Shown: positions 1-59,683, counted from the first letter of the stretch. The stretch is 64,000 bases of DNA from Candidatus Kaiserbacteria bacterium (GCA_016186765.1 JACPLD010000003.1:6121-70120); one strand, 5' to 3'. Notes: generated from the letters alone by a model not told the origin. Translations and numbers: made by a program.

Positions 1-199
1 GATGCCCCAGAGCATATGCTTGATGTGCTGCTCGCGGTTCGCCCCCTTGTCGAGATCGAGCAAAAATTGCACGAGACCGAAGACAAAGAGAAAAAATCCG
101 GCAGCAATGACGAGAAGTATTGCCGGATCGATGACGTAGGTGACGAAATTCTCGAGAAGTTGTGCACCGCTCATGTGGGATCAGCGGGCGGGATCAAAT

Positions 200-556
200 T
201 TAGTATGTCCTTCCCGGATTTACAACAATGCCCTTCGGAATGACTGGGTCGGTCGAGGTGACCTTGAGCGTGCTCTGTAGCAAGCGGATGATACCCCAAA
301 TACTGACCATGACAAAAATCGCGATGACACCCCAGAACATGATCTTAAGACCCTCACTTGCGTTCTCATGGTCCATGCTCATGAGGTACTTGATAAGACC
401 CCAGAAGAAGACAACGATTGCAAGGGTGATAAAGAGTCCGATGACGCCGTTTAAGAGCGTGCTCGCAAGCACGAGCACGTTAGTCAAGGTCTGTGCGCTC
501 GCAAGCGACGGCAGAAGGAGCGCAAGGAGAGCTACAGCGCGGCTAATTCCTTTCAT
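200..556 (-). CDS. small secreted protein with a signal peptide and two hydrophobic helices carrying conserved FWG...SIWGII(R/H)LLQ motifs; paralog 1 of 3; candidate VirB2/TrbC-like pilin
   Basis: N-terminal signal peptide (LALLLPSLASAQ), two TM helices, and motifs shared with the ORFs at 1072-1494 and 1521-1874. Size of about 118 aa. Confidence 0.4.
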   Translation of the reverse strand: MKGISRAVALLALLLPSLASAQTLTNVLVLASTLLNGVIGLFITLAIVVFFWGLIKYLMSMDHENASEGLKIMFWGVIAIFVMVSIWGIIRLLQSTLKVTSTDPVIPKGIVVNPGRTY

Positions 557-658
557 AGGTATGGCGATGCACAGATAAGTAACTAAGTACTCTCATGCTA
601 TCGGGCCCCCTGAAAAACACAATCGGCCGCGCGTCAATCGTGTGGATAACGTCCTCGC

Positions 659-1075
659 TCACTCGCGCTCTCGAGGCGAAGCTGGAGGCTTCTTTTTCGA
701 GGTCGCTATGAGGCGTATGATGAAAAAGGCCACAACAGCTATGATGAGAAAGGCGATGATCGGCAGCGCTACGCTGCCGTGGTGCTGAATCGCATTGACG
801 ATCGAAAGCACGACAATGAGGACAAAGAGCATTACAATCGCCCACTCAAGCACCCGTATCGCGGCGTCGCGGTACGAAGGCCATGTGTTAAAACGTGCGA
901 CGTATATCGAAAACCCCGCCACGAAAATGAGAACGATACCCGTCAGGACGAGACCTACGACGATATGGAAAAAGCCAACTACCTGCGGCAGCGTGAGTGC
1001 GTCCACATTTCCCGGTGCGAGAAAGAGTGTCGCGACTGTGCATGTACCGACAATAACTCTACGTTCACCGTTCAT
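659..1075 (-). CDS. hypothetical integral membrane protein (about 4 TM) lying between the paralogous small secreted proteins
   Basis: Four hydrophobic segments and a K-rich C-terminal tail; no recognisable motif. Confidence 0.3.
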   Translation of the reverse strand: MNGERRVIVGTCTVATLFLAPGNVDALTLPQVVGFFHIVVGLVLTGIVLIFVAGFSIYVARFNTWPSYRDAAIRVLEWAIVMLFVLIVVLSIVNAIQHHGSVALPIIAFLIIAVVAFFIIRLIATSKKKPPASPRERE

Positions 1076-1494
1076 ATCTCGAGCCGGCCGACCGAACAGT
1101 TGCCGAAGTTGTCGCAGAGCGTTGCCGACTCGCCTGCGCCCGGAGTAAACTGCGAATCGCCACCGAAGAGTGTGTTTTGCAGAAGGTGAATGATGCCCCA
1201 GATCGAAGCCATCACAAAAAGTACGACGAGGCCCCAGAAAAAGAACGATTTCCTCTTCTCTGCACCCTTTTCATCTCCGAAGTGCGGAATGTTCGTCGCC
1301 ATCCCCCAGAAGTACACGACGAGCCCGAAGATAATGAGCGTGAACGTGGCAGTATCGAGGATCTCGACGACGTCATAGGCGAGCTCTTGAAATGTATTCG
1401 GCGCGGCGAGCGCCACGGAAGGAAGAAGAAGTATCGCGTATGGAGTATAGAGTATGGAGGAAAAGATTGTTTTCAGAGTCCTGCAACCCCCCAT
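1072..1494 (-). CDS. small secreted two-helix protein, paralog 2 (pilin-like); likely start at MGGCRTLK (ATG at 1494) rather than the ORF-track start at 1575
   Basis: Shares ...VYFWGM...FFFWGLVVLFVMASIWGIIHLLQNTL with paralog 1. A signal-peptide-like N-terminus follows the internal Met. Confidence 0.4.
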   Translation of the reverse strand: MGGCRTLKTIFSSILYTPYAILLLPSVALAAPNTFQELAYDVVEILDTATFTLIIFGLVVYFWGMATNIPHFGDEKGAEKRKSFFFWGLVVLFVMASIWGIIHLLQNTLFGGDSQFTPGAGESATLCDNFGNCSVGRLEI

Positions 1495-1520
1495 ACGCGA
1501 TACTCCATACTCCATACTCA

Positions 1521-1874
1521 CTATCTGCCGGTGAGCTGCGACACGGTGCCGGCAATCAGAGTTGCAATGATCCACGCCCCAAGTATGAGAAGTGCGCCAA
1601 TGATGACGTAGAAAAAATTGAGCTTCGCTTTCTGAAGTTTTTCCTGATTTCCCTGCGCAGTGATGAAGTAAAAACCGGAGACCACGAGAAAGAGCGTAAC
1701 GATGGGAAGCGCTATCATCGCGAGCGCTTTTAAGGCGCCGGCGATAAAAAGTGGTATGGTATCGAAATTGAGAGGATTTTTGAGCCCCACACCTTGCGCG
1801 AACGCCGTAGATGCGAAGGAAAGAACCGTGAGGAGAGTCAAGATCGCGATTCGGTAGGCCTTTCGTGTATGCAT
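1521..1874 (-). CDS. small secreted or membrane protein, paralog 3 of the pilin-like cluster (more divergent); start probably MHTRKAYRIAIL at 1874, right after the stop of the upstream gene
   Basis: Signal peptide (LSFASTAFAQ) plus two hydrophobic helices. It sits in tandem with paralogs 1 and 2 and its architecture resembles theirs. Confidence 0.3.
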   Translation of the reverse strand: MHTRKAYRIAILTLLTVLSFASTAFAQGVGLKNPLNFDTIPLFIAGALKALAMIALPIVTLFLVVSGFYFITAQGNQEKLQKAKLNFFYVIIGALLILGAWIIATLIAGTVSQLTGR

Positions 1875-1875
1875 A

Positions 1876-3177
1876 CTATTCCCCCATCGCTTGCGCGAGC
1901 TCCTGATTCGCGCGGCCAACTGCCTCCGAAAGACGCGAGGAGCCCGTTGTCACGCTCTCAATCATACCGCGGAACACGCCATCCGTCTTTTCCGGATCGG
2001 GATCCACCCACGAGCGTGCGATGAGAGCTTCTCCCTCGAAGAGCACGTTCTCGCCCTTCAGGCTCTCCGCGATGACGTCGCGTCTTGCCGAAGGGATACC
2101 CACCGCAACCGAAAGTGCGCGCGCAACAGAAGTGTCGGCAATAAGAGCCGCGACCGTCATGGCGCCCTCTGGATTGCGGCTCGTCCGCGAAACCGAAAGC
2201 GCGTAGACATGCGCAGCGTTCGTGGAGCGCGTAGCCGTCTTCCCTTGCGGAACCGCGGCGCCTGCGAAATTGAGGTTCGGGTTCATGCGCGCAAGCAGCG
2301 TCGATTCTGATGCATAGCCGAGGTAGAGCGCGAGATCGCCTGCGGCAAACTCAGCCCGAGAGCTCGGGAGCGATCGATTCCACGAGTAGTGGACTTTGGA
2401 GGGATCGGCAAATTCCGTATAAAAACGAAGCGCGGATTCTGCAGCCTGCGAGGGCGAACCCGCGACGCGAAGCGTGAGCGCGGGGACAAGGCGACCCGTG
2501 CCATCTTCCTGCGTAATAGTGCCCCCAGCCTGCTGTATAAGAAGAGTGATGATGTCCTTTGCGTGATTCACATTCGCGAATTCACCCAGCGATATCGCAG
2601 ATAGAACAATGCCACCGGAGTCGTCTCTCTTCGTGACCTTCTGCGCAAATTCAGGTACGTCCTCCCAGTACTGCGGGGGCTTCGCAAACCCTGCGGAAGC
2701 CAAGATGTCTCGGTTCCAGTAAAAAATCAGGGGATCGACAAAAAGTGGAATGCCGAGCACTCCTTCCTCCGAAAGATAGGGGTTTGCTGCCTCGAGGAAC
2801 GTATCCTTGAACTTCGTTTCGGAAAGGAATGTGTAGGGAACAGGTATGACCTTACCCTTGTCGCGCATGGCGTAATCTTGCCGCAGAAGAAAGAGATCGG
2901 GTCCCGTGCCGTTTGCGAGCGCTTCGGTGAGATCAGCCTCGTAGGTAGCCGGATCTCTTTGAACGTAGGTGACTTGCGAGAGCCTACCGTCGTTCTCGGA
3001 CGCTTGTCGTAAGACAACCGCAAATGCGTTTGGCTCGAGCGTACCCCATATCGTCATCGGCCCGATAGAATTGCGCCCACCTGAACCAACGACAAGCGCG
3101 AAAATGAGTATGCCAGAGATCGCAAGAGCTCCGAATGCGGAGAGCAGGATGATCTGAAAAACCGACAGATTCTTCAT
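1876..3177 (-). CDS. extracellular solute-binding protein (ABC-type, family 1-like) with an N-terminal membrane anchor
   Basis: N-terminal TM segment followed by a periplasmic-binding-protein-like sequence of about 400 aa. No permease or ATPase gene is adjacent. Confidence 0.45.
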   Translation of the reverse strand: MKNLSVFQIILLSAFGALAISGILIFALVVGSGGRNSIGPMTIWGTLEPNAFAVVLRQASENDGRLSQVTYVQRDPATYEADLTEALANGTGPDLFLLRQDYAMRDKGKVIPVPYTFLSETKFKDTFLEAANPYLSEEGVLGIPLFVDPLIFYWNRDILASAGFAKPPQYWEDVPEFAQKVTKRDDSGGIVLSAISLGEFANVNHAKDIITLLIQQAGGTITQEDGTGRLVPALTLRVAGSPSQAAESALRFYTEFADPSKVHYSWNRSLPSSRAEFAAGDLALYLGYASESTLLARMNPNLNFAGAAVPQGKTATRSTNAAHVYALSVSRTSRNPEGAMTVAALIADTSVARALSVAVGIPSARRDVIAESLKGENVLFEGEALIARSWVDPDPEKTDGVFRGMIESVTTGSSRLSEAVGRANQELAQAMGE

Positions 3178-3782
3178 ATCGCAGCGTACGGCACAGGCCC
3201 CAATACTAATCCATAGTGGTGCGCGCCCGCCGGAAACTCTCGGATAAGTTCCAAGCTACTCCTGCGCGCAAGGTCGAGAGCCATTTCCCTGCTGACTACA
3301 TCTTCCTTGCGCGGACCGAACGAACCTGCCTCGTTGGAACGCGAAGCGTTTTCTTCGGGGTTACTCCAGTCGACGATCGCGACTGTGCCGGTCGATTTGA
3401 TAATACGTCGCGCTTCGCGCAAAACTGGCAGCTTGTCGGGCACTTGAAAGAGAAGATTCGATATGAGCACAAGATCGATCGAGCTATCGGCAAGCTTGGA
3501 GGCGCGCGGAACCTCAAGATCTGCCCAGATAACCTCGACATTTTTGTAGCCGCGACGCACCGCTTCGTTGTGAATGCGCCGTAAGAGATCACGCTGCACG
3601 TCGATGGCATAGACCGCGCCGCTGCCTCCCAGTCGCTCGGCGATCGCGAGCACGTACGCACCACTTCCCGCACCAAAATCCGCAACGCGCATGCCACTCT
3701 GGATCCCCAGTGCGCCAACATTCTTCTTTGGGTGCGCAAAGCCTTCCGTATTCAACGGAGCATGATGTGCAGTCTGCTGCAT
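3174..3782 (-). CDS. class I SAM-dependent methyltransferase
   Basis: Motif I VADFGAGSGAY. Its stop overlaps the downstream gene start by 4 nt. Confidence 0.6.
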   Translation of the reverse strand: MQQTAHHAPLNTEGFAHPKKNVGALGIQSGMRVADFGAGSGAYVLAIAERLGGSGAVYAIDVQRDLLRRIHNEAVRRGYKNVEVIWADLEVPRASKLADSSIDLVLISNLLFQVPDKLPVLREARRIIKSTGTVAIVDWSNPEENASRSNEAGSFGPRKEDVVSREMALDLARRSSLELIREFPAGAHHYGLVLGPVPYAAI

Positions 3783-3827
3783 CCTATACAGTATATATGG
3801 ACTCCGAGCGACAATCCTTAGTTTTCC

Positions 3828-6314
3828 TCAACTCGCTGCTTCAGCTGTCTCAAACACAACGAACGAAGCAACACTATCTCCTTCTCGCAATTTCATGACT
3901 CTGACTCCTTGAGTTGCGCGGGAGAGGGTCGGGATCTCGTCGAGACCAGTGCGGATGGTTTGTGATTTCTTTGACATCGCGACGAGCTCACCTCCACCGA
4001 GAACGACCGCGGCACCCACGAGCTGCTTTGTCTTCGGCGTGATAGACATCGTCTTGATACCGCTTCCGCCCCTGCCTTGCACCTTGTACTCATCGAGCTT
4101 CGTCTTCTTGCCATAGCCGGTCGAAGAAACAACGAGCAATTCTCCTTTTGCGCCTTTCGGCACGACGCCCGTGCCGACGATCATATCTCCCCTTCCAAGC
4201 TTCATGCCGCGCACACCAGCGGCTTGCCGCCCCATCTCGCGCACTGCTCTTTCGTCAAACCGGATCGACTGCCCTTTCCCGGTCACCAAGACTACCGAAT
4301 CACTCTTGCGCACGAAGGCCGCGGATATGAGGGCATCACCCTTATCCAAATTGATCGCTATCAATCCAGAGCGGCGTACCTCGTGGAACTTATTCGCCAC
4401 GACTTTCTTGACGGTACCGTTGCGAGTCGCCATCAAAAGCGCAAGCCCTTCCACAGCCTTCTTTTCTTTCGGCATAGCGAGGATCGAAGTGATGCTTTCT
4501 CCCTGCTCGAGCGAGATGAAATTCATAATCGACTTACCCTTAGTCGCGCGTTTTCCCTCCGGCAGCTCGTACATCTTGAGTTGATACACCTTCCCACGAT
4601 CGGAGAAAAAGAGAAGGTCGGAGTGCGCGGAGGAGGTGAGAAACTCAGTCACGAAGTCTTCTTCTTTCGTGTCGAGATCGACGACGCCGATACCTCCGCG
4701 CTTCTGGCGCCGGTACTCTACCGGGTTCGTGCGTTTGATGTAGCCGCCCTGCGTGAGGACGACGACATAGTCCTCGTCTGCGACGAGATCCTCCGCAGAG
4801 AGAAGCTTCGCGGGGCGCTTCACGATCTTCGTGCGCCGCTCATCGCCATATTTTTCGATCACCTCGCGAATCTCCTTTTTGATAAGTTCGAGGAGTTTCC
4901 TCTCGCTCTTAAGGAGCGCCGCAAGCTCCTCAATCAGCGCTTGCACTTGCTTCAGCTCGTCCTCGATCTTTTTTCTCTCCAGACCGGCAAGCTTTTGGAG
5001 CTTCATGTCAAGAATCGCGTTTGTCTGCCGCTCAGAGAATTTGAATGTCTTTATCAACTCCGCGCGTGCGTCCTCCACGTCCTTGCTCTTCTTGATGAGT
5101 TTGATGATCTCGTCGATGTGGTCAAGCGCCTTCTTGAGACCAAGCAAGATGTGCTCGCGCTCCTCAGCCTTTTCCAGATCAAATTTCGTTCGCTTTGTAA
5201 CAACTTCTCTGCGAAAGGCGATAAAGTATTCGAGGAGCGCTTTGAGAGGAAGCGTCTGCGGCACGCCATCGACGAGCGCGACGATGTTGTAGTGGAATGT
5301 TTCCTCAAGCTGCGTGTGCTTGTAGAGGTAATTGAGAACAGTCTGCGCATTCGCATTGTTCTTCAGTTCAATCACCACGCGAATGTCTTTCGTCGACTCG
5401 TCGCGGATATCCCGGATCCCTTCCAACTTTTTCTCGTGCACGAGATCGGCAATCTTCGTCAGAAGATCGGCCTTATTCACGCGGAACGGTATCGATGTGA
5501 TAACGATCTGGTAATCGCCTTTCTTTCCTTCAACGATCTCCGCATCTCCGCGCACGACGACAGGACCGCGGCCAGTCGCATAGGCATGCGCGATGTCTTT
5601 TTGGTTGAAGGCGATACAACCGGTCGGAAAATCAGGTCCTTGGACGAATGAAAGCAGCTCCTCCGTCGTCGCCTCTGGATTTTCGATGAGATGCATGGCA
5701 GCCTCGCACACTTCGCGCAGGTTGTGCGGCGGAATGTTCGAGGCCATGCCGACTGCGATCCCCAGTGTACCGTTCAGAAGGAGATTCGGGATCGCCGCAG
5801 GTAACACTCCCGGCTCCTGCTTCGTGTTGTCGTAGTTGGGGCGGAACTCGACGGTCTCCTTCTCGATATCACGGAGCATTTCTGACGCGAGACGCGACAT
5901 TTTGGCTTCGGTATAGCGATATGCTGCGGGCGCGTCGCCGTCGATTGAACCGAAATTTCCCTGGCCCACGATAAGCGGGTAGCGCATCGTAAAATCCTGC
6001 GCCATCTTCACCATCGCGTCGTACACGGCCGCATCGCCGTGCGGATGGTATTTACCGATCACGTCGCCTACCACGGTTGCAGACTTTCTAGTCTTCGCGG
6101 AAACCGTGAGTCCGGCTTCCTGCATCGCGTACAAAATCCGTCGATGCACCGGCTTTAGCCCATCGCGCACGTCGGGAAGCGCGCGCGCGGTAATCACCGA
6201 CATCGCGTAGTCGAGATAGCTCTCCCGCATCTCGGTCGAGATGTCCCGCAAAACGACGCCGCGCGCGCTTCCCGGTGCGGGAGCATGAGCAGATGTGTTC
6301 TTCTCGCGTGCCAT
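3828..6314 (-). CDS. gyrA: DNA gyrase subunit A
   Basis: Contains [18 protein letters not shown] and AAYRYTE (active-site Tyr region); 828 aa with C-terminal beta-pinwheel repeats. Confidence 0.95.
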
Positions 6315-37529: not shown

Positions 37530-38280
37530 TTTACTCCTACATATTAGTGGTTTCGTAAACCACTAATATATACTGGCGATATGGAACTCTACCACGTCCT
37601 AAATAGAGGTGTAGAAAAAAGACTAATTTTTCTAGACGAAGCAGATCGGGCTCGCTTTGTCCACGACCTTTGGGAATTCAACGATACAGAAGATGCGAAA
37701 AATGTATGGTACCGAGTCTCCCAAAATAAGGGTTTACGAAACCACTATATTGAAAAGGAAAGGATTGTAGATCTTCATGGGTGGTGTCTGATGGGGAATC
37801 ACTATCACTTGCTTATATCAGAAAAGCATGACGGAGGGCTTACGAAATTCATTCGTCGGCTCAACGTCGGATACGCCAACTACTTTAACGAACGCTATAG
37901 GCGCCAGGGTACTCTTTTCCAGGGTCGCACGAGGAAAGTTCTAATCAGCACCGACGCGCACTTCTTGCACATACTGAACTACATCCATTGCAACCCGCTC
38001 GATTTCTTAAAAAACGCAGCAGATTGGAGAGAGCACAAGATTGGTAGCGCGGCTTATGCGCTGCGCTATCTCTCTAACTATAGATGGAGCAGCTACCTCG
38101 ATTACTCGGGAGTCCGGAATTTCCCTTCGGTATTGACTACAGAGCTGTTTTCCGATGTTTTCAAGGACTACAAAAAGGAAATTTCTTCTTTTCTGCTTAC
38201 AAACGAAACAAAAAGGCTGAACGGTTATCAACTCGAATATTAGTGGTTTACGAAACCATTAATATCTGTCGGAAAAAGAG
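37530..38280 (+). mobile_element. second IS200/IS605-family-like minimal element (tnpA flanked by palindromic hairpins ATATTAGTGGTTT-NNN-AAACCACTAATAT)
   Basis: Perfect 13-bp-stem palindrome at 37541-37569 and a 1-mismatch copy at 38237-38265 (contains the tnpA stop codon). A partial third copy (GGTTTACGAAACCACTATAT) lies inside the ORF at 37731-37750. Confidence 0.6.
37581..38243 (+). CDS. tnpA: HUH Y1 transposase, IS200-like / RAYT-like (TnpA), divergent paralog of the ORF at 9003-9671
   Basis: HuH motif NHYHLLI and YIHCNP; shares LNRG...R.iF.D..DR..F with the first copy. Confidence 0.65.
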   Translation: MELYHVLNRGVEKRLIFLDEADRARFVHDLWEFNDTEDAKNVWYRVSQNKGLRNHYIEKERIVDLHGWCLMGNHYHLLISEKHDGGLTKFIRRLNVGYANYFNERYRRQGTLFQGRTRKVLISTDAHFLHILNYIHCNPLDFLKNAADWREHKIGSAAYALRYLSNYRWSSYLDYSGVRNFPSVLTTELFSDVFKDYKKEISSFLLTNETKRLNGYQLEY

Positions 38281-53630: not shown

Positions 53631-54542
53631 CTAATTACCTTTCTTGGCGAGGGCATTTATCGCAGGAATGATGATCTTCAAGGTGTCGTCATAAAAGTTC
53701 AAATCTCCGACCGTGGAGAGCGGAAACCACTGCGCATCATCCAAACCGCCAGATGGACCGAGCTTCAGCTCCGTAAACGGCGACTCCGCTAGAAAGTACG
53801 TAACACGTTTCCGCTTCTTGCCACCTTCGACCTTCGAATCGTTCGCAACATACTCGTTGACGCCGAGCTCCTCCTTGATCGTGATATCGAGTCCCATTTC
53901 CTCTTTTATTTCACGCACGGCACCCGCACGGATGTCTTCACCCTCCTCTATCTTGCCCTTAGAAATCGTCCAATGGCCGAAAATGTCGTGCACGAATGCG
54001 AGATACGTCTCACCCTTGTTCTTCGCGTATACGACGGCTCCCGCGAGGTGTTCGGTCGGCATCTTTGCGGGTTTGTCTCCCTCTTTCTTGCGCGTGCCGC
54101 CCTCGTTCTTCCCCGGCTCGCCGAGCTCTATGTAGACAGCGCCCAATACGCCGTTCACAAAGCGTCCCGAGGAAGCGGAGCCGAACGTCTTTGCGAGCTC
54201 GATAGCCTCATTGATTGCTACTTTTGCGGGCACCTGCGTGCGGTCGGCAAAAAGAAGTTCCGCAAGGCCGAGGCGAAGGACATTGCGGTCGATCGCTGCA
54301 ATCTTCTCAAGCGGCCACTCAGGTGCAGCGCGCACGATCACCTCGTCGATTTCTTTTTGCTTTGCAACCGCCGTCTGCAGGAGCTGTTCCATGAACGGCA
54401 TATCGCTCTCGCGCGCGCCGAATTCTTTCGCATACTCGACAAGACGCGAGCGCGCCTCGTCACCCTCGATTTTGCCGCCCGATTGATCGCGCTCGAAAAG
54501 CACTTGGAGCACTACACAGCGAGCTAGGTGTCGGTTGGCCAT
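53631..54542 (-). CDS. nusB: NusB antitermination domain fused to a C-terminal NUDIX hydrolase domain
   Basis: N-terminal roughly 140 aa match NusB (AAIDRNVLRLGLAELLF...PAKVAINEAIELAK..GS..SGRFVNGVLG). The C-terminal half carries the Nudix box GKIEEGEDIRAGAVREIKEEMGL. Confidence 0.6.
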   Translation of the reverse strand: MANRHLARCVVLQVLFERDQSGGKIEGDEARSRLVEYAKEFGARESDMPFMEQLLQTAVAKQKEIDEVIVRAAPEWPLEKIAAIDRNVLRLGLAELLFADRTQVPAKVAINEAIELAKTFGSASSGRFVNGVLGAVYIELGEPGKNEGGTRKKEGDKPAKMPTEHLAGAVVYAKNKGETYLAFVHDIFGHWTISKGKIEEGEDIRAGAVREIKEEMGLDITIKEELGVNEYVANDSKVEGGKKRKRVTYFLAESPFTELKLGPSGGLDDAQWFPLSTVGDLNFYDDTLKIIIPAINALAKKGN

Positions 54543-54596: not shown

Positions 54597-54869
54597 TTAT
54601 GACTGGGCGGTTTCCTTTTCCTTATCCTCAGTAATCTGTCCGGATTCGCGGAGTGCTTTTTCACGACGCGTATCACGTCGGGCCTGCCGTTTCGCGCGCG
54701 CGACAATGTCGATGACGATGCGACCGTTGTATTTTCCACAGGATGGGCACGCGCGATGCGGAAGGCGCGCTGCGCCGCACTCGCATTTCACTGTATGGAC
54801 ACCCTCAAGCGCATGATGGCTCCGTCGCTTCGCGGTTTCCGACCTGTTCCGGCGCATTCGCACTACCAT
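54597..54869 (-). CDS. rpmF: 50S ribosomal protein L32
   Basis: RRSHHAL...C.CG...LPHRACPSCGKYNGR. Confidence 0.75.
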   Translation of the reverse strand: MVVRMRRNRSETAKRRSHHALEGVHTVKCECGAARLPHRACPSCGKYNGRIVIDIVARAKRQARRDTRREKALRESGQITEDKEKETAQS

Positions 54870-55935: not shown

Positions 55936-58900
55936 ATGTCGCGTGATTTTGTCCACCTACACACACATTCGCACTACTCGCTGCTTGAGGCACTGCCAAA
56001 AATTCCCGAGCTCGTTGCTGCAGCGGCGAAAGACGGGCAGAAAGCGCTCGCGCTTACCGACAACGGGAACCTCTACGGTGCAATAGAGTTTTACAAAGAG
56101 TGCAATGAAAACAGCATCAAGCCCATCATCGGCGTTGACTTCCACGTAGCCCCGCGCTCACGCGCACAAAAGGAGCATCGCGTGGACGACCAAACTTCGC
56201 GCCTTGTGCTTCTCGCGAAGAATGAAACGGGATACCGCAATCTCATTCAACTGGTCTCGAAAGCGCATCTCGAAGGCTTCTACTACCGCCCTCGCATCGA
56301 CCGCGAGCTTATCGAGAAGTTCCGGGAGGGCCTCATCGCGATTCTTCCCAGCTACGGTGGCGAGCATGCGCATGCGATCCGCCACGGCTCTGCAGCGTAT
56401 GCCGAAGAAATCATGCACTGGTTCAATATGCTCTTTGGAGAAGATTGCTACGCGGAGATAACGCGCCATCCGGAGATCGTAGAGCACGAAGAGCAGATGC
56501 AAGATATCGTCGCGCGTGCGAAAGCGGTAGGAGTCCCGCTCGTTGCAGCGCACGATGTCTACTACCTTTTGCCCGAAGACTTGCTCGCATGCGATCTTGT
56601 CAACAAAATCCGGACGGGCGGGGCACTCAACCGCGATGCAGAAACCACGCTGCGCAACTTTTCTTTTATTCCCCGCGCGCGCGCGGCGGAGCTGTTCGCC
56701 GATCTGCCCGATGCGCTCGAAAATACTCTGAAGATCGCAGAAGCGTGCGGCCTGCGACTAACCTTGGGAAAAGCCATCCTTCCACACTTCCCCATTGCAG
56801 AGCATTCGACGCACAACGAGGAATTGAGAGCGCTCGCAGAGAGCGGAATCCCCTTGAGAGAACTCTCCGACACCCCGGAGTTGCGAGCTCGACTCGAGTA
56901 TGAGCTCGATATCATCGGCAAGAAGGGCTATGCGTCTTACTTCCTGATCGTCGCGGATCTCCTCCGACACGCGCGGGAACGCGGCATCTACACCAACACG
57001 CGCGGCTCCGCCGCTGGCTCCCTTGTTTCCTACCTCTGCGGCATCACGACGGTTGATCCAATCAAATTCCAAATGCCGTTCGAGCGCTTTCTCAATCCCG
57101 AGCGGCCTTCCGCGCCCGACATTGATATGGACATCGCCGACGACCGCCGCGACGAATTGATTGAGTATGTGCGTCACAAGTACGGAGAAGATAGAGTGGC
57201 ACAGATTGGCACCTTTGGCACGATGATGGCACGCGCTGCTGTGCGCGATGTCGCGCGGGCACTCGGCCACCCCTACGGATTGGGCGACACGATCGCGAAG
57301 CTCATCCCTTTCGGCAAACAGGGCTTCCCCGTTTCTATCAAGAGCGCGCTCGAGAGCACGCCAGAGCTCGCGCAAATCTATAAGAGCGATGCCGCGAGCC
57401 GTGAGATCCTCGATCTCGCGCAAAAGGTCGAGGGCAACGCGCGACACGTCGGCGTGCACGCAGCGGGAGTCGTTATCGCGCCCTCACCGGTCACCGACTT
57501 CTCGCCTATCCAGCTCGATCCCAAAGGCGGAAAAACGATCACGCAGTACGATATGTACTCGATAACCGATGAATATGGGGGAGTCGGACTCCTCAAATTT
57601 GACCTTCTCGGACTCACCAACCTCTCCGTCCTCTCAGACGCCGTGAATCGCGTCCGCGAGCGCCTTGGCATTGAGATTGATCTCGATCGCCTCCCCCTCG
57701 ATGATGAGAAAACATACGCGATGCTTTCAAGCGGGCAGACGCATGGCGTTTTCCAGCTTTCAGGCGGCGGTATGACGAGCTACCTCACAAACCTTGAGCC
57801 CTCGACCATCCACGATATCAACGCGATGGTCGCCCTCTACCGCCCAGGCCCGATAGCCTTCATCCCCGCGTACATCGAACGCAAAAAGAACCCGAAACTC
57901 ATCCGCTACCTTGATCCGCGCATGGAGCCGATCCTCAAAAATTCATACGGCGTCATCGTCTACCAAGACGATGTCTTGGAGATCGCAATAAAGCTTGCGG
58001 GCTACAGCTGGCTCGAAGCTGATAAATTCCGCAAGGCGATGGGGAAAAAGATCCCCGCAGAAATGCGCGCGCAAAAGGAAAAGTTCACGAGCGGCTGCGT
58101 GAAGCACGGGATGAAGAAGGATGTGGCGCAAAGACTATGGGAGCAGATCGAAACCTTCGCAGCGTATGGCTTCAATAAGGCGCATGCTGCAAGTTATGGC
58201 AATCTCGCCTACAAAACGGCATACATGAAGGCGAATTTTCCGGTGCACTACATGGCGGCACTTCTCACGGCAGACGCGGGCGACGTGGATAAGACCGCAG
58301 AGACGGTGCAAGAGTGTAAACGAATGGGGATCTCGGTCTTGCCTCCATCGGTCAACGAGAGTCGAGGCGACTTTACGGTCATAGGTGACACAAGTATTCG
58401 TTTCGGTCTCTATTCCATAAAAAACTTCGGCCGCGGCGTCGCCAACTCCATCGTTGCCGCCCGCCTTCGCTCCGCCGAAGCTCGCAAGAGCGAAGGCGAG
58501 CTTCCCGGAGCTTCGGCGAGGCAAGCACGCGAAGGTCCGTTCAAGGACATCGCCGACTTCCTTTCCCGTGTCCCCGACAAGAACCTCAACAAGAAACAGC
58601 TCGAGTCGCTCGTCCAATCAGGCGCGCTCGACGAGCTCGGAGAGCGCGGTGCGCTCCTCTCAAACATCGACCTCCTTTTGAATTACCATCGCGAGCACAT
58701 GAAGGCCCCCTCGGACCAGGGATCGCTCTTCTCCTCGGCTTCGCTTGGGGTACGTGGTGCGCTGCCACTCAAACTACTCGCTGGAAAACAAGCGACGCTC
58801 GAAGAGCGGCTCGCATGGGAAAAAGAGCTGCTCGGCCTCTATGTTTCAGGTCATCCCCTAGACAAGTACAAGGCGAAGTTTGCTAACCCCAAGAAAACCA

Positions 58901-59172
58901 TCAGGCACGCTAAGGAGCATTTGCGCGGCGTAGAGACGGTCATCGCAGGATTCGTCGAGACTAGCCGCGTCAACATGACAAAGAATGGCGAGCGAATGGG
59001 CTTTCTGAAGATAGCAGATTTCTCTGATGCGATCGAAGTGGTCGCATTTCCTCGCACGTTCAAGGAGTATGAATCTCTCATGGCACCAGGCACATGCATT
59101 GTGATCAAAGGAAAAATCTCGGAGAGAAATGGCGAGCCAAGTTTCGTGGTTGAGCGCGCGAAAGCGCTCTAA
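55936..59172 (+). CDS. dnaE: DNA polymerase III alpha subunit
   Basis: PHP domain FVHLHTHSHYSLLEA, polymerase core, and a C-terminal OB fold. Confidence 0.95.
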   Translation: MSRDFVHLHTHSHYSLLEALPKIPELVAAAAKDGQKALALTDNGNLYGAIEFYKECNENSIKPIIGVDFHVAPRSRAQKEHRVDDQTSRLVLLAKNETGYRNLIQLVSKAHLEGFYYRPRIDRELIEKFREGLIAILPSYGGEHAHAIRHGSAAYAEEIMHWFNMLFGEDCYAEITRHPEIVEHEEQMQDIVARAKAVGVPLVAAHDVYYLLPEDLLACDLVNKIRTGGALNRDAETTLRNFSFIPRARAAELFADLPDALENTLKIAEACGLRLTLGKAILPHFPIAEHSTHNEELRALAESGIPLRELSDTPELRARLEYELDIIGKKGYASYFLIVADLLRHARERGIYTNTRGSAAGSLVSYLCGITTVDPIKFQMPFERFLNPERPSAPDIDMDIADDRRDELIEYVRHKYGEDRVAQIGTFGTMMARAAVRDVARALGHPYGLGDTIAKLIPFGKQGFPVSIKSALESTPELAQIYKSDAASREILDLAQKVEGNARHVGVHAAGVVIAPSPVTDFSPIQLDPKGGKTITQYDMYSITDEYGGVGLLKFDLLGLTNLSVLSDAVNRVRERLGIEIDLDRLPLDDEKTYAMLSSGQTHGVFQLSGGGMTSYLTNLEPSTIHDINAMVALYRPGPIAFIPAYIERKKNPKLIRYLDPRMEPILKNSYGVIVYQDDVLEIAIKLAGYSWLEADKFRKAMGKKIPAEMRAQKEKFTSGCVKHGMKKDVAQRLWEQIETFAAYGFNKAHAASYGNLAYKTAYMKANFPVHYMAALLTADAGDVDKTAETVQECKRMGISVLPPSVNESRGDFTVIGDTSIRFGLYSIKNFGRGVANSIVAARLRSAEARKSEGELPGASARQAREGPFKDIADFLSRVPDKNLNKKQLESLVQSGALDELGERGALLSNIDLLLNYHREHMKAPSDQGSLFSSASLGVRGALPLKLLAGKQATLEERLAWEKELLGLYVSGHPLDKYKAKFANPKKTIRHAKEHLRGVETVIAGFVETSRVNMTKNGERMGFLKIADFSDAIEVVAFPRTFKEYESLMAPGTCIVIKGKISERNGEPSFVVERAKAL

Positions 59173-59225
59173 ATTTGACGCCCGGCTGTTTTTAGGTTAG
59201 AAAAAAGACCGCTGGTTCCCAATCA

Positions 59226-59600
59226 ATGCAAAGGAGACAACGGATGCCACAAACTAGAGCGTCGATTCTCAAAGGCTGCGGCAAGGCTGTCCGGTCGGTT
59301 TACGCCAACGGAAAAGTATCCGAAGCCGACCGAAACAACCTCGAACGAGGCCACCAACTCCTGTTCGGCCTGATCAGAAACTTGGCGAGCGAGACGCCGA
59401 AGTATCGACTTCAAATCGAACGCGCGCTACAAGATGTGCATCCGCGGACCGATTATTGCATTGCGATGTTGATCCGCGACATCGCCGACGTTTGTGTCAC
59501 CCTGAACCGACTTCGAGCGGGTGGCGGCCGCTCAGTCGAATCGAAGGTGGTTGATGCTTCTGCACTCTGCATCCACCTCGGCTACGAGTTTAGGGCTTGA
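59226..59600 (+). CDS. hypothetical protein
   Basis: 124-aa ORF preceded by an AAGGAGA ribosome-binding site. Confidence 0.3.
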   Translation: MQRRQRMPQTRASILKGCGKAVRSVYANGKVSEADRNNLERGHQLLFGLIRNLASETPKYRLQIERALQDVHPRTDYCIAMLIRDIADVCVTLNRLRAGGGRSVESKVVDASALCIHLGYEFRA

Positions 59601-59683
59601 ATTGTCGGCCTCGCGCAAACGAAGGCGGCGAGCGTTTCGCTCTCGCCTTCGTTTTTTTGGAAAACTTGCTACTATCCACTGTT

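Follow-up and report, generated by a model that had tools for sequence, protein, structure and literature searches.

Small secreted proteins with two hydrophobic helices are encoded in tandem on the minus strand of a 64,000-nucleotide (nt) stretch of DNA from a Candidatus Kaiserbacteria bacterium (GCA_016186765.1 JACPLD010000003.1:6121-70120; hereafter the window), and the question raised by this locus is whether these proteins are pilin subunits of a type IV secretion system (T4SS) and, if they are, which machinery they could serve. The original prediction, made from the sequence alone, named three paralogous candidate pilins of the VirB2/TrbC type and treated an interleaved protein with four transmembrane (TM) helices as an outsider. 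All three genes (A, C and D below) were present as described and are related to each other, but the set comprises five members: the interleaved protein B, which turned out to belong to the same family and is better read as a signal peptide plus three TM helices, and E, which is truncated by the window edge, are part of it as well. We consider it very probable that all five proteins, called D, C, B, A and E in gene order, belong to the pilin family. With moderate confidence, we further read the locus as an operon of five specialised pilin-like proteins of the VirB2/TrbC superfamily that is served by a T4SS in trans.

Family membership and architecture of the five proteins

Three family models were used for comparison, namely PF18895 T4SS_pilin (gathering cut-off 26.6 bits), PF04956 TrbC/VirB2 (cut-off 27.9 bits) and NF045849 (equivalog cut-off 40 bits). 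D (34.0 bits) and A (27.3 bits) exceeded the PF18895 cut-off, E (21.3 bits, E-value 2.8e-4) and B (15.4 bits, E-value 0.02) scored below it, and C had no Pfam match at all of its own. PF18895 is also the pilin-like family of reduced-genome bacteria that had been mentioned without certainty in the original prediction, and arrays of this kind are described in PMC10633639 and PMC12102498. Against TrbC/VirB2, D scored 25.7 bits (E-value 1.3e-5), just below the cut-off, and no match was found for A, B, C or E. With ortholog hits counted at E-values <= 1e-3, PF18895 was matched by 56 of 56 D orthologs, and by 51 of 54 A orthologs, while TrbC/VirB2 was matched by 48 of the 56 D orthologs (best 1.7e-10); one D ortholog (P0126) carries the NCBI name 'pilin'. 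The T4SS pilin reading was thus upheld by two proteins above the PF18895 threshold and by the resemblance of D to TrbC/VirB2; homology of D to the latter appears likely from these profile comparisons, with the window protein itself sub-threshold.

The best NCBIfam match of both D (24.8 bits, 1.3e-5) and A (22.7 bits, 5.8e-5) was NF045849, the family of the pilin-like protein Mbov_0395/MMCAP2_0565 of Mycoplasma integrative and conjugative elements (ICEs), which are conjugative elements of wall-less monoderms. Both scores were below the cut-off (for D, 24.8 vs 40 bits, far under it), the 47 of 56 D orthologs that matched the model (best 3.4e-9) were always below it too, and no ICE context was present at the locus, so NF045849 is best regarded as a family related to D and A, not as one to which they belong. 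The relationship fits the reported MPF-FATA ancestry of Patescibacterial T4SSs. An exhaustive profile search with D returned 12,374 cluster representatives at E-values <= 1e-3, which indicates a very large family, and a tblastn search of D against 72,556 plasmids gave no match.

The remaining members are tied together through A. Paralogy of A and C, as originally claimed, was evident in blastp (E-value 3e-15; 46% identity over a core of 56 amino acids (aa)), and further matches linked E to A (1e-14; 32% identity), E to C (3e-10) and B to A (2e-4). Profile-profile comparison of the ortholog alignments with hhalign gave probabilities of 99.9% for C-A, 99.9% for A-E, 98.6% for B-A and 95% for C-B, so that all pairs among A, C, E and B lay at 95-99.9% except B-E (26.8%), and a hidden Markov model (HMM) built from B orthologs matched A at 3e-16. 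D, which had been called more divergent, showed no significant pairwise blastp match to A, C or any other paralog. Under the published definition of a Patescibacterial VirB2 array, at least two pilin genes in tandem or one non-pilin gene apart with low mutual identity (PMC12102498), the contiguous genes D, C, B, A and E, whose mutual identity is low, form such an array. No sixth family member was found elsewhere in the 64 kb window.

By heuristic reading, A, C and D carry a signal peptide (basic N-terminus, h-region and small residues at -3/-1) followed by two long hydrophobic helices, in agreement with the original prediction. Cleavage was predicted, on the same heuristic basis, between LASA and QT in A, VALA and AP in C, AFA and QG in D, and NVDA and LT in B, with AxA-type sites conserved in all four. 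The motifs previously pointed out, FFWG and MFWGVIAIFVMVSIWGIIRLLQSTL in A and YFWG and FFWGLVVLFVMASIWGIIHLLQNTL in C, were found in these proteins and are kept in about 70 related species. Of the outcomes named beforehand as grounds for rejecting the pilin reading, namely no similarity to pilin families, no predicted signal-peptide cleavage and loss of the motifs in homologs, none was obtained. The mature D protein would be about 91 aa long, with two helices of about 36 residues each joined by the basic loop AQGNQEKLQKAK. A, the best conserved of the five, is a two-helix hairpin with a conserved, predicted extracellular tail, KVTSTDPVIPKGI. C has a signal peptide, a hairpin and a variable C-terminal tail; a C-terminal cysteine pair in C (CDNFGNC) was considered as a feature and dropped, as the orthologs are without it. 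In B, the predicted signal peptide and hairpin are followed by a third TM helix and then by a basic, predicted cytoplasmic tail (KKKPPASPRERE). E is without a signal peptide, and in alignments it begins where mature A begins. Both the loops joining the helices and the C-terminal tails vary between the paralogs. AlphaFold2 modelling yielded two-helix hairpins for both proteins modelled: for D (121 homologs), a signal-peptide helix and helices at residues 37-72 and 77-114, with predicted local distance difference test (pLDDT) values of 85-96 (10-residue block means) over residues 41-110, and for A, helices at residues 21-59 and 66-96 with a mean pLDDT of 72.5.

Operon layout and conservation in relatives

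To follow the locus across species, one genome per species was scanned, which gave 80 loci, and the 56 clean five-gene arrays among them were used for alignments. Hardly any deviation from the order gyrA, methyltransferase, solute-binding protein (SBP), D, C, B, A, E was seen across 72 related species-level genomes, with the SBP gene directly upstream of D in 72 related loci; the loci other than the 56 clean ones hold 4-6 small genes in near-identical order where the operon is reached. An E ortholog occupies the same slot in 56 of 56 five-gene operons and in nearly all other loci that reach this position. The B slot is filled in 11 of the 56 species by a shorter protein (68-128 aa), closer to A than to B and too short for the B architecture, and hhalign related B to these short variants at 99.4%. 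The closed Kaiserbacteria chromosome CP066682.1 contains the same block, flanked by housekeeping genes (IF-2, RbfA, ClpB, S1). Median identity to the window proteins was 59% for D, 49% for C, 38% for B, 68% for A and 53% for E, and that of the neighbours was 55% for the SBP, 58% for the methyltransferase and 83% for GyrA (down to 65%). Since these slot-wise identities are similar to those of the neighbours, each slot can be taken as a 1:1 ortholog group under comparable constraint. Fixed orthology, fixed order and distinct architectures together argue for five specialised subunits of one structure rather than interchangeable ones.

The coordinates of the block are given in Table 1. As originally noted, the SBP and methyltransferase genes lie directly upstream of the cluster; the methyltransferase keeps its position in the relatives and is the first gene of the conserved block after gyrA. 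Spacing is tight throughout: the methyltransferase and SBP genes overlap by 4 nt, 1 nt separates the SBP stop from the D start, C and B overlap by 4 nt (ATGA), and gaps of 102 nt and 25 nt precede A and E, respectively. The D-C gap is 26 nt, or 5 nt if C begins at the in-frame ATG at 1515, which may be its start codon in place of that at 1494; in most relatives, C starts 1-6 nt past the D stop. Such spacing is consistent with co-transcription of the cluster. The D-C junction (1492-1520, minus strand) is spanned by the heptamer repeats GAGTATG GAGTATG GAGTATC GCGTATG, which cover the spacer and both possible start codons of C. A similar repeat was seen solely in the closest relative, L010, and in other species the ATG of C follows the D stop by 1-6 nt; the repeat is a local expansion. 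E is represented in the window by its first 58 codons (complete open reading frame at L001:5557-5865), and identical short contigs from other samples that reach beyond the window edge show E followed by a convergent gene for a class IV aminotransferase. The NCBI locus tags of C and E in Candidatus Kaiserbacteria are HYW60_02505 and HYW60_02490, respectively, both on a contig of 99 kb.

Table 1. Features of the conserved block in the window (positions counted from the first letter of the stretch)
Feature	Positions	Strand	Remarks
gyrA	3828-6314	minus	heads the conserved block
Class I S-adenosylmethionine-dependent methyltransferase, 202 aa	3174-3782	minus	Methyltransf_31 2.9e-19, Ubie_methyltran 1e-13
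SBP, 433 aa	1876-3177	minus	N-terminal membrane anchor; SBP_bac_1 3.9e-19, SBP_bac_8 5.4e-17
D, 117 aa	1521-1874	minus	canonical TrbC/VirB2-like pilin
C, 140 aa	1072-1494	minus	pilin-like paralog; 147 aa if start = 1515
B, 138 aa	659-1075	minus	pilin-like hairpin plus third TM helix
B-A spacer	557-658	minus	candidate internal promoter for A and E
A, 118 aa	200-556	minus	pilin-like protein
E, 102 aa	1-174 in window, continues past left edge	minus	fifth pilin-like paralog

The SBP is of the carbohydrate type and probably translationally coupled to D, and its nearest matches among solved structures are sugar-binding proteins (4r9f, 2e-8; 1eu8, 3e-6). Neither the operon nor, in the closed relative CP066682.1, the 10 kb around it holds a gene for an ATP-binding cassette (ABC) permease or ATPase (BPD_transp, ABC_tran), and in this scope the protein is, unlike the SBPs of ABC transporters, not encoded with a cognate permease and ATPase. 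It is a candidate carbohydrate-recognising partner or adhesin, not a part of an ABC importer.

The spacer between B and A contains a DnaA-box-like site, TTATCCACA, at 641-649, the sole exact copy in the window, which matches the DnaA-box consensus of E. coli. It is followed by a -35-like TTGTGT (617-622), a 16-nt gap, a -10-like TAGCAT (595-600) and a conserved GTACTT (585-590). In 51 of 56 species (27 exact), a TTATCCACA-type 9-mer with at most one mismatch preceded the start of A by 89-141 nt, with a distance of 89-102 nt in 45 of the 51, against a background of 2.4 such 9-mers per 10 kb. The spacer looks like an internal and possibly DnaA-controlled promoter for A and E. Generic scans for consensus promoters and terminators performed at chance level and did not flag the spacer, and a search of Rfam over positions 1-4000 of the window gave no match. 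Elsewhere in the window, the cumulative GC skew declines steadily, is lowest near 58-60 kb and increases from there; matches to the DnaA box with one mismatch occur at 54622, 54732 and 58284, and dnaA itself was not seen among the window genes. Around 58000-60000, a strand switch related to replication is possible but unsupported.

A proposed secretion machine in trans and competing explanations

In the picture that we favour, D, C, B and A would be exported by Sec and cleaved after AxA, E would insert directly without a signal peptide, and all five would sit in the membrane as N-out/C-out helical hairpins, with the basic loop of D facing the cytoplasm. They would be extracted and stacked into a short pilus or an envelope- or wall-spanning conduit aimed at a host cell by a T4SS from another part of the genome, made up of a VirB4-type ATPase and VirB3/VirB6-like partners. 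The role of major subunit would fall to one or two of the five, D or A, the rest being minor, initiating or basal, and B would stay in the membrane as the base through its extra anchor helix and cytoplasmic tail. The SBP may act as a sugar-recognising partner or adhesin, and A and E would be driven by their own conserved promoter-like region with its DnaA-box-like site.

A T4SS acting in trans is suggested by published surveys of the phylum. VirB2-like pilins were reported in 1,948 VirB4-bearing Patescibacterial assemblies and near virB4 in only 1,135 (PMC12102498). About 40% of assemblies are reported to have such pilins at a distance from virB4, and the pilin array of S. epibionticum is essential. 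Table S1 of the same study scores as VirB4-positive 9 of 14 related draft genomes that bear the operon, a proportion close to the phylum-wide rate (about 80% of Patescibacteria), which neither proves nor disproves a partner machine. The idea of a binding-protein partner draws some support from an unrelated VirB4-unlinked array (L089) that is trailed by a pilin-PKD fusion and a PKD-repeat protein, and from the many family members with presumably extracellular N-terminal domains of 150-300 aa.

Several results weigh against this picture. As the original prediction had observed for T4SS ATPases, neither VirB4 nor VirD4 is among the window proteins; VirB6 and VirB3 are likewise absent from the 64 kb window, and the 10 kb around the operon lacked all four in each of the 80 relatives, the closed chromosome CP066682.1 among them. 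The other five of the 14 related drafts are scored VirB4-negative. D is joined to A, C, B and E mainly via the shared Pfam model, its hhalign probability to A being only 26%. Searches with the D and A ortholog profiles against all PDB sequences returned no solved pilin, only chance matches to designed proteins or ion channels, and a Foldseek search of the models against PDB gave nothing significant (best E-value 1.6); a helical hairpin is a low-information fold, and the modelled folds are compatible with the pilin reading but uninformative. The subunit roles, the role of the SBP and the formation of a pilus are putative.

A rival explanation is a T4SS-independent membrane complex, in which the five hairpins bundle into a fixed hetero-oligomer that cooperates with the orphan sugar-type SBP; it would need neither a pilus nor VirB4 and could be, for instance, a pore for uptake or a module of the envelope. 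In its favour, virB4 was never close to the operon, which is embedded in deep synteny among housekeeping genes, the SBP has no ABC permease or ATPase neighbour, five of 14 related genomes were scored VirB4-negative, B has its extra anchor helix, and the natural proteins that carry 6-8 tandem pilin hairpins on one chain would be polytopic in the membrane. D is, however, homologous to TrbC/VirB2 pilins, the sole experimentally studied Patescibacterial array sits in an essential T4SS cluster, and the VirB4-negative genomes are incomplete drafts in a phylum where about 80% have VirB4. No SBP-dependent transporter is known to use such subunits. On balance, we consider this complex possible but doubtful. 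In a related and quite unlikely version, the five hairpins and the orphan SBP would constitute one stoichiometric surface device, a heteromeric VirB2-like conduit with a carbohydrate-recognising partner, working without a canonical T4SS or only loosely with it, in which the tandem-hairpin chains would be the covalent form and a DnaA-box switch on A and E would tie host contact or uptake to the replication cycle.

Interchangeable pilin variants, amplified in tandem for antigenic or host-range variation as has been read for Patescibacterial arrays, Bartonella and Anaplasma, would account for the strong divergence of the paralogs (A-C 46%, A-E 32%, D unalignable), which matches the reported mean array identity of 25%, and for the loops and tails that differ among them. 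Against variation of this kind stand the 1:1 ortholog slots in fixed order in about 70 species (GyrA identity down to 65%), with conservation on a par with or above that of the flanking SBP and methyltransferase, the distinct architectures of two members, B with its third TM helix and E lacking a signal peptide, and the narrow copy-number range of 4 to 6, so that we hold it to be improbable. Readings that have nothing to do with secretion machinery, such as small exported toxins, bacteriocins accompanied by immunity proteins, or holin-like peptides, which the small size, signal peptides, hydrophobic helices and clustering of the proteins and a weak, chance-level match of A to KwaA (E-value 0.0076) might call to mind, are very improbable in view of the pilin-family HMM matches, the deep vertical conservation in a housekeeping context, the lack of processing or export genes nearby and the outcome of PADLOC and PHROG comparisons, in which no family pointed to defence or phage functions.

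In two relatives (L037 and L064), a PF18895-like gene at a distance of about 8 kb from the operon was considered as a sign of a possible T4SS locus and rejected, both being solitary genes just after clpB. Each encodes a cysteine-rich PF18895-like protein of 145-160 aa (L037:11889-12326 and L064:18985-19467) with the pattern CDVPGGCQSICD…GPWNKIC, and that in L064 is followed by a PemK/MazF toxin gene. The larger open reading frames of the window are all housekeeping genes (GyrA, RpoB/C, DnaE, SMC, DnaG, sigma-70, FtsA/Z, tRNA synthetases and others). Among the few non-housekeeping genes is one (61022-62452, minus strand) whose 476-aa product begins with a hydrophobic signal or anchor and matches nothing in Pfam. 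A 303-aa open reading frame (53631-54542, minus strand) appears to be a fusion of NusB (residues 7-136) and a NUDIX hydrolase (residues 186-278). Beside dnaG, among housekeeping genes, lies a gene (37581-38243, plus strand) whose 220-aa product contains a Y1 transposase domain, IS200-like (E-value 7e-7), and which may be of the domesticated or solitary TnpA/REP-associated type.

Relation to known pilin systems

Arrays of VirB2-like pilins in Patescibacteria have already been published, and the present locus is a member of this described class. In S. epibionticum, the T4SS cluster holds a series of predicted pilins and is essential (Wang 2023, PMC10633639), and a 2025 review counts six VirB2-like pilins in it, conserved in structure and divergent in sequence. 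Quinonero-Coronel 2025 (PMC12102498) searched 3,035 Patescibacteria genomes, Kaiserbacteria included, with PF04956 and PF18895 and surveyed 441 arrays with a mean within-array identity of 25%. The locus resembles these 441 arrays, those of S. epibionticum ML1 (SEML1_0006-0019) and the 'Sec secreted array' of TM7x, in the phylum, in the families PF18895/PF04956, in its divergent tandem pilin-like genes (within-array identity about 25-50%) and in being broken, as arrays sometimes are, by a gene that the HMMs miss. In contrast, it lies outside a T4SS cluster, the 10 kb around it being free of VirB4 in about 80 genomes, consists of five ortholog groups in constant order, and is joined to an SBP and a methyltransferase beside gyrA. 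The published reading of such arrays is variation for host adaptation, whereas the present data favour specialised subunits.

With the TrbC/VirB2 pilins (PF04956; Agrobacterium VirB2, RP4 TrbC, F TraA), D shares a signal peptide, the hairpin and a short basic loop. It differs in scoring below the family cut-off and in giving no sequence or Foldseek match to solved pilins, and the T4SS gene-cluster context expected of such pilins (adjacent virB3/virB4) is not present here. The Patescibacterial host is reported to be monoderm, unlike the context of TrbC/VirB2 pilins. By analogy, the locus may also be compared with the sets of major and minor (pseudo)pilins of type II secretion and type IV pili, in which a fixed set of roughly five small paralogs, each with its own conserved role, is co-encoded. 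Type IV pilins have an unrelated fold, with an N-terminal helix and a globular head, and are processed by a prepilin peptidase.

Outside the window, the family includes proteins of unusual build. Five poly-pilins (P0241 at L089:9925-12387, P0252, P0260, P0274 and P0354) are 500-820 aa long and contain 6-8 tandem VirB2-like hairpins. P0241, with eight repeats, is identical in three independent assemblies (JGI, ENA, Logan), and a homolog search with this eight-repeat protein returned only itself. After its gene come those for another pilin, a pilin-PKD fusion and a PKD-repeat protein of 718 aa, and VirB4 is absent from the surrounding 10 kb. Many others, such as P0278, P0294, P0300 and P0304, are 250-416 aa long and have one C-terminal hairpin after a large N-terminal domain, which presumably lies outside the cell, given the signal peptide and its low hydrophobicity, as if cargo or an adhesin were displayed on a pilin.

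What the locus adds to the published class is modest, namely fixed orthology, linkage to an SBP, and the presence upstream of A of promoter-like elements together with a DnaA-box-like motif that is conserved, and no new kind of system is revealed. Patescibacteria depend on host bacteria, and in the one species tested, the T4SS and its pilin array are essential. The locus provides a comparative case, a VirB4-unlinked array of five fixed orthologs with a coupled SBP and a conserved regulatory spacer, in which the SBP and the DnaA-box-like site are nominated as experimental handles. It thereby sharpens the question of whether the members of such arrays are specialised subunits of one structure or alternative variants.

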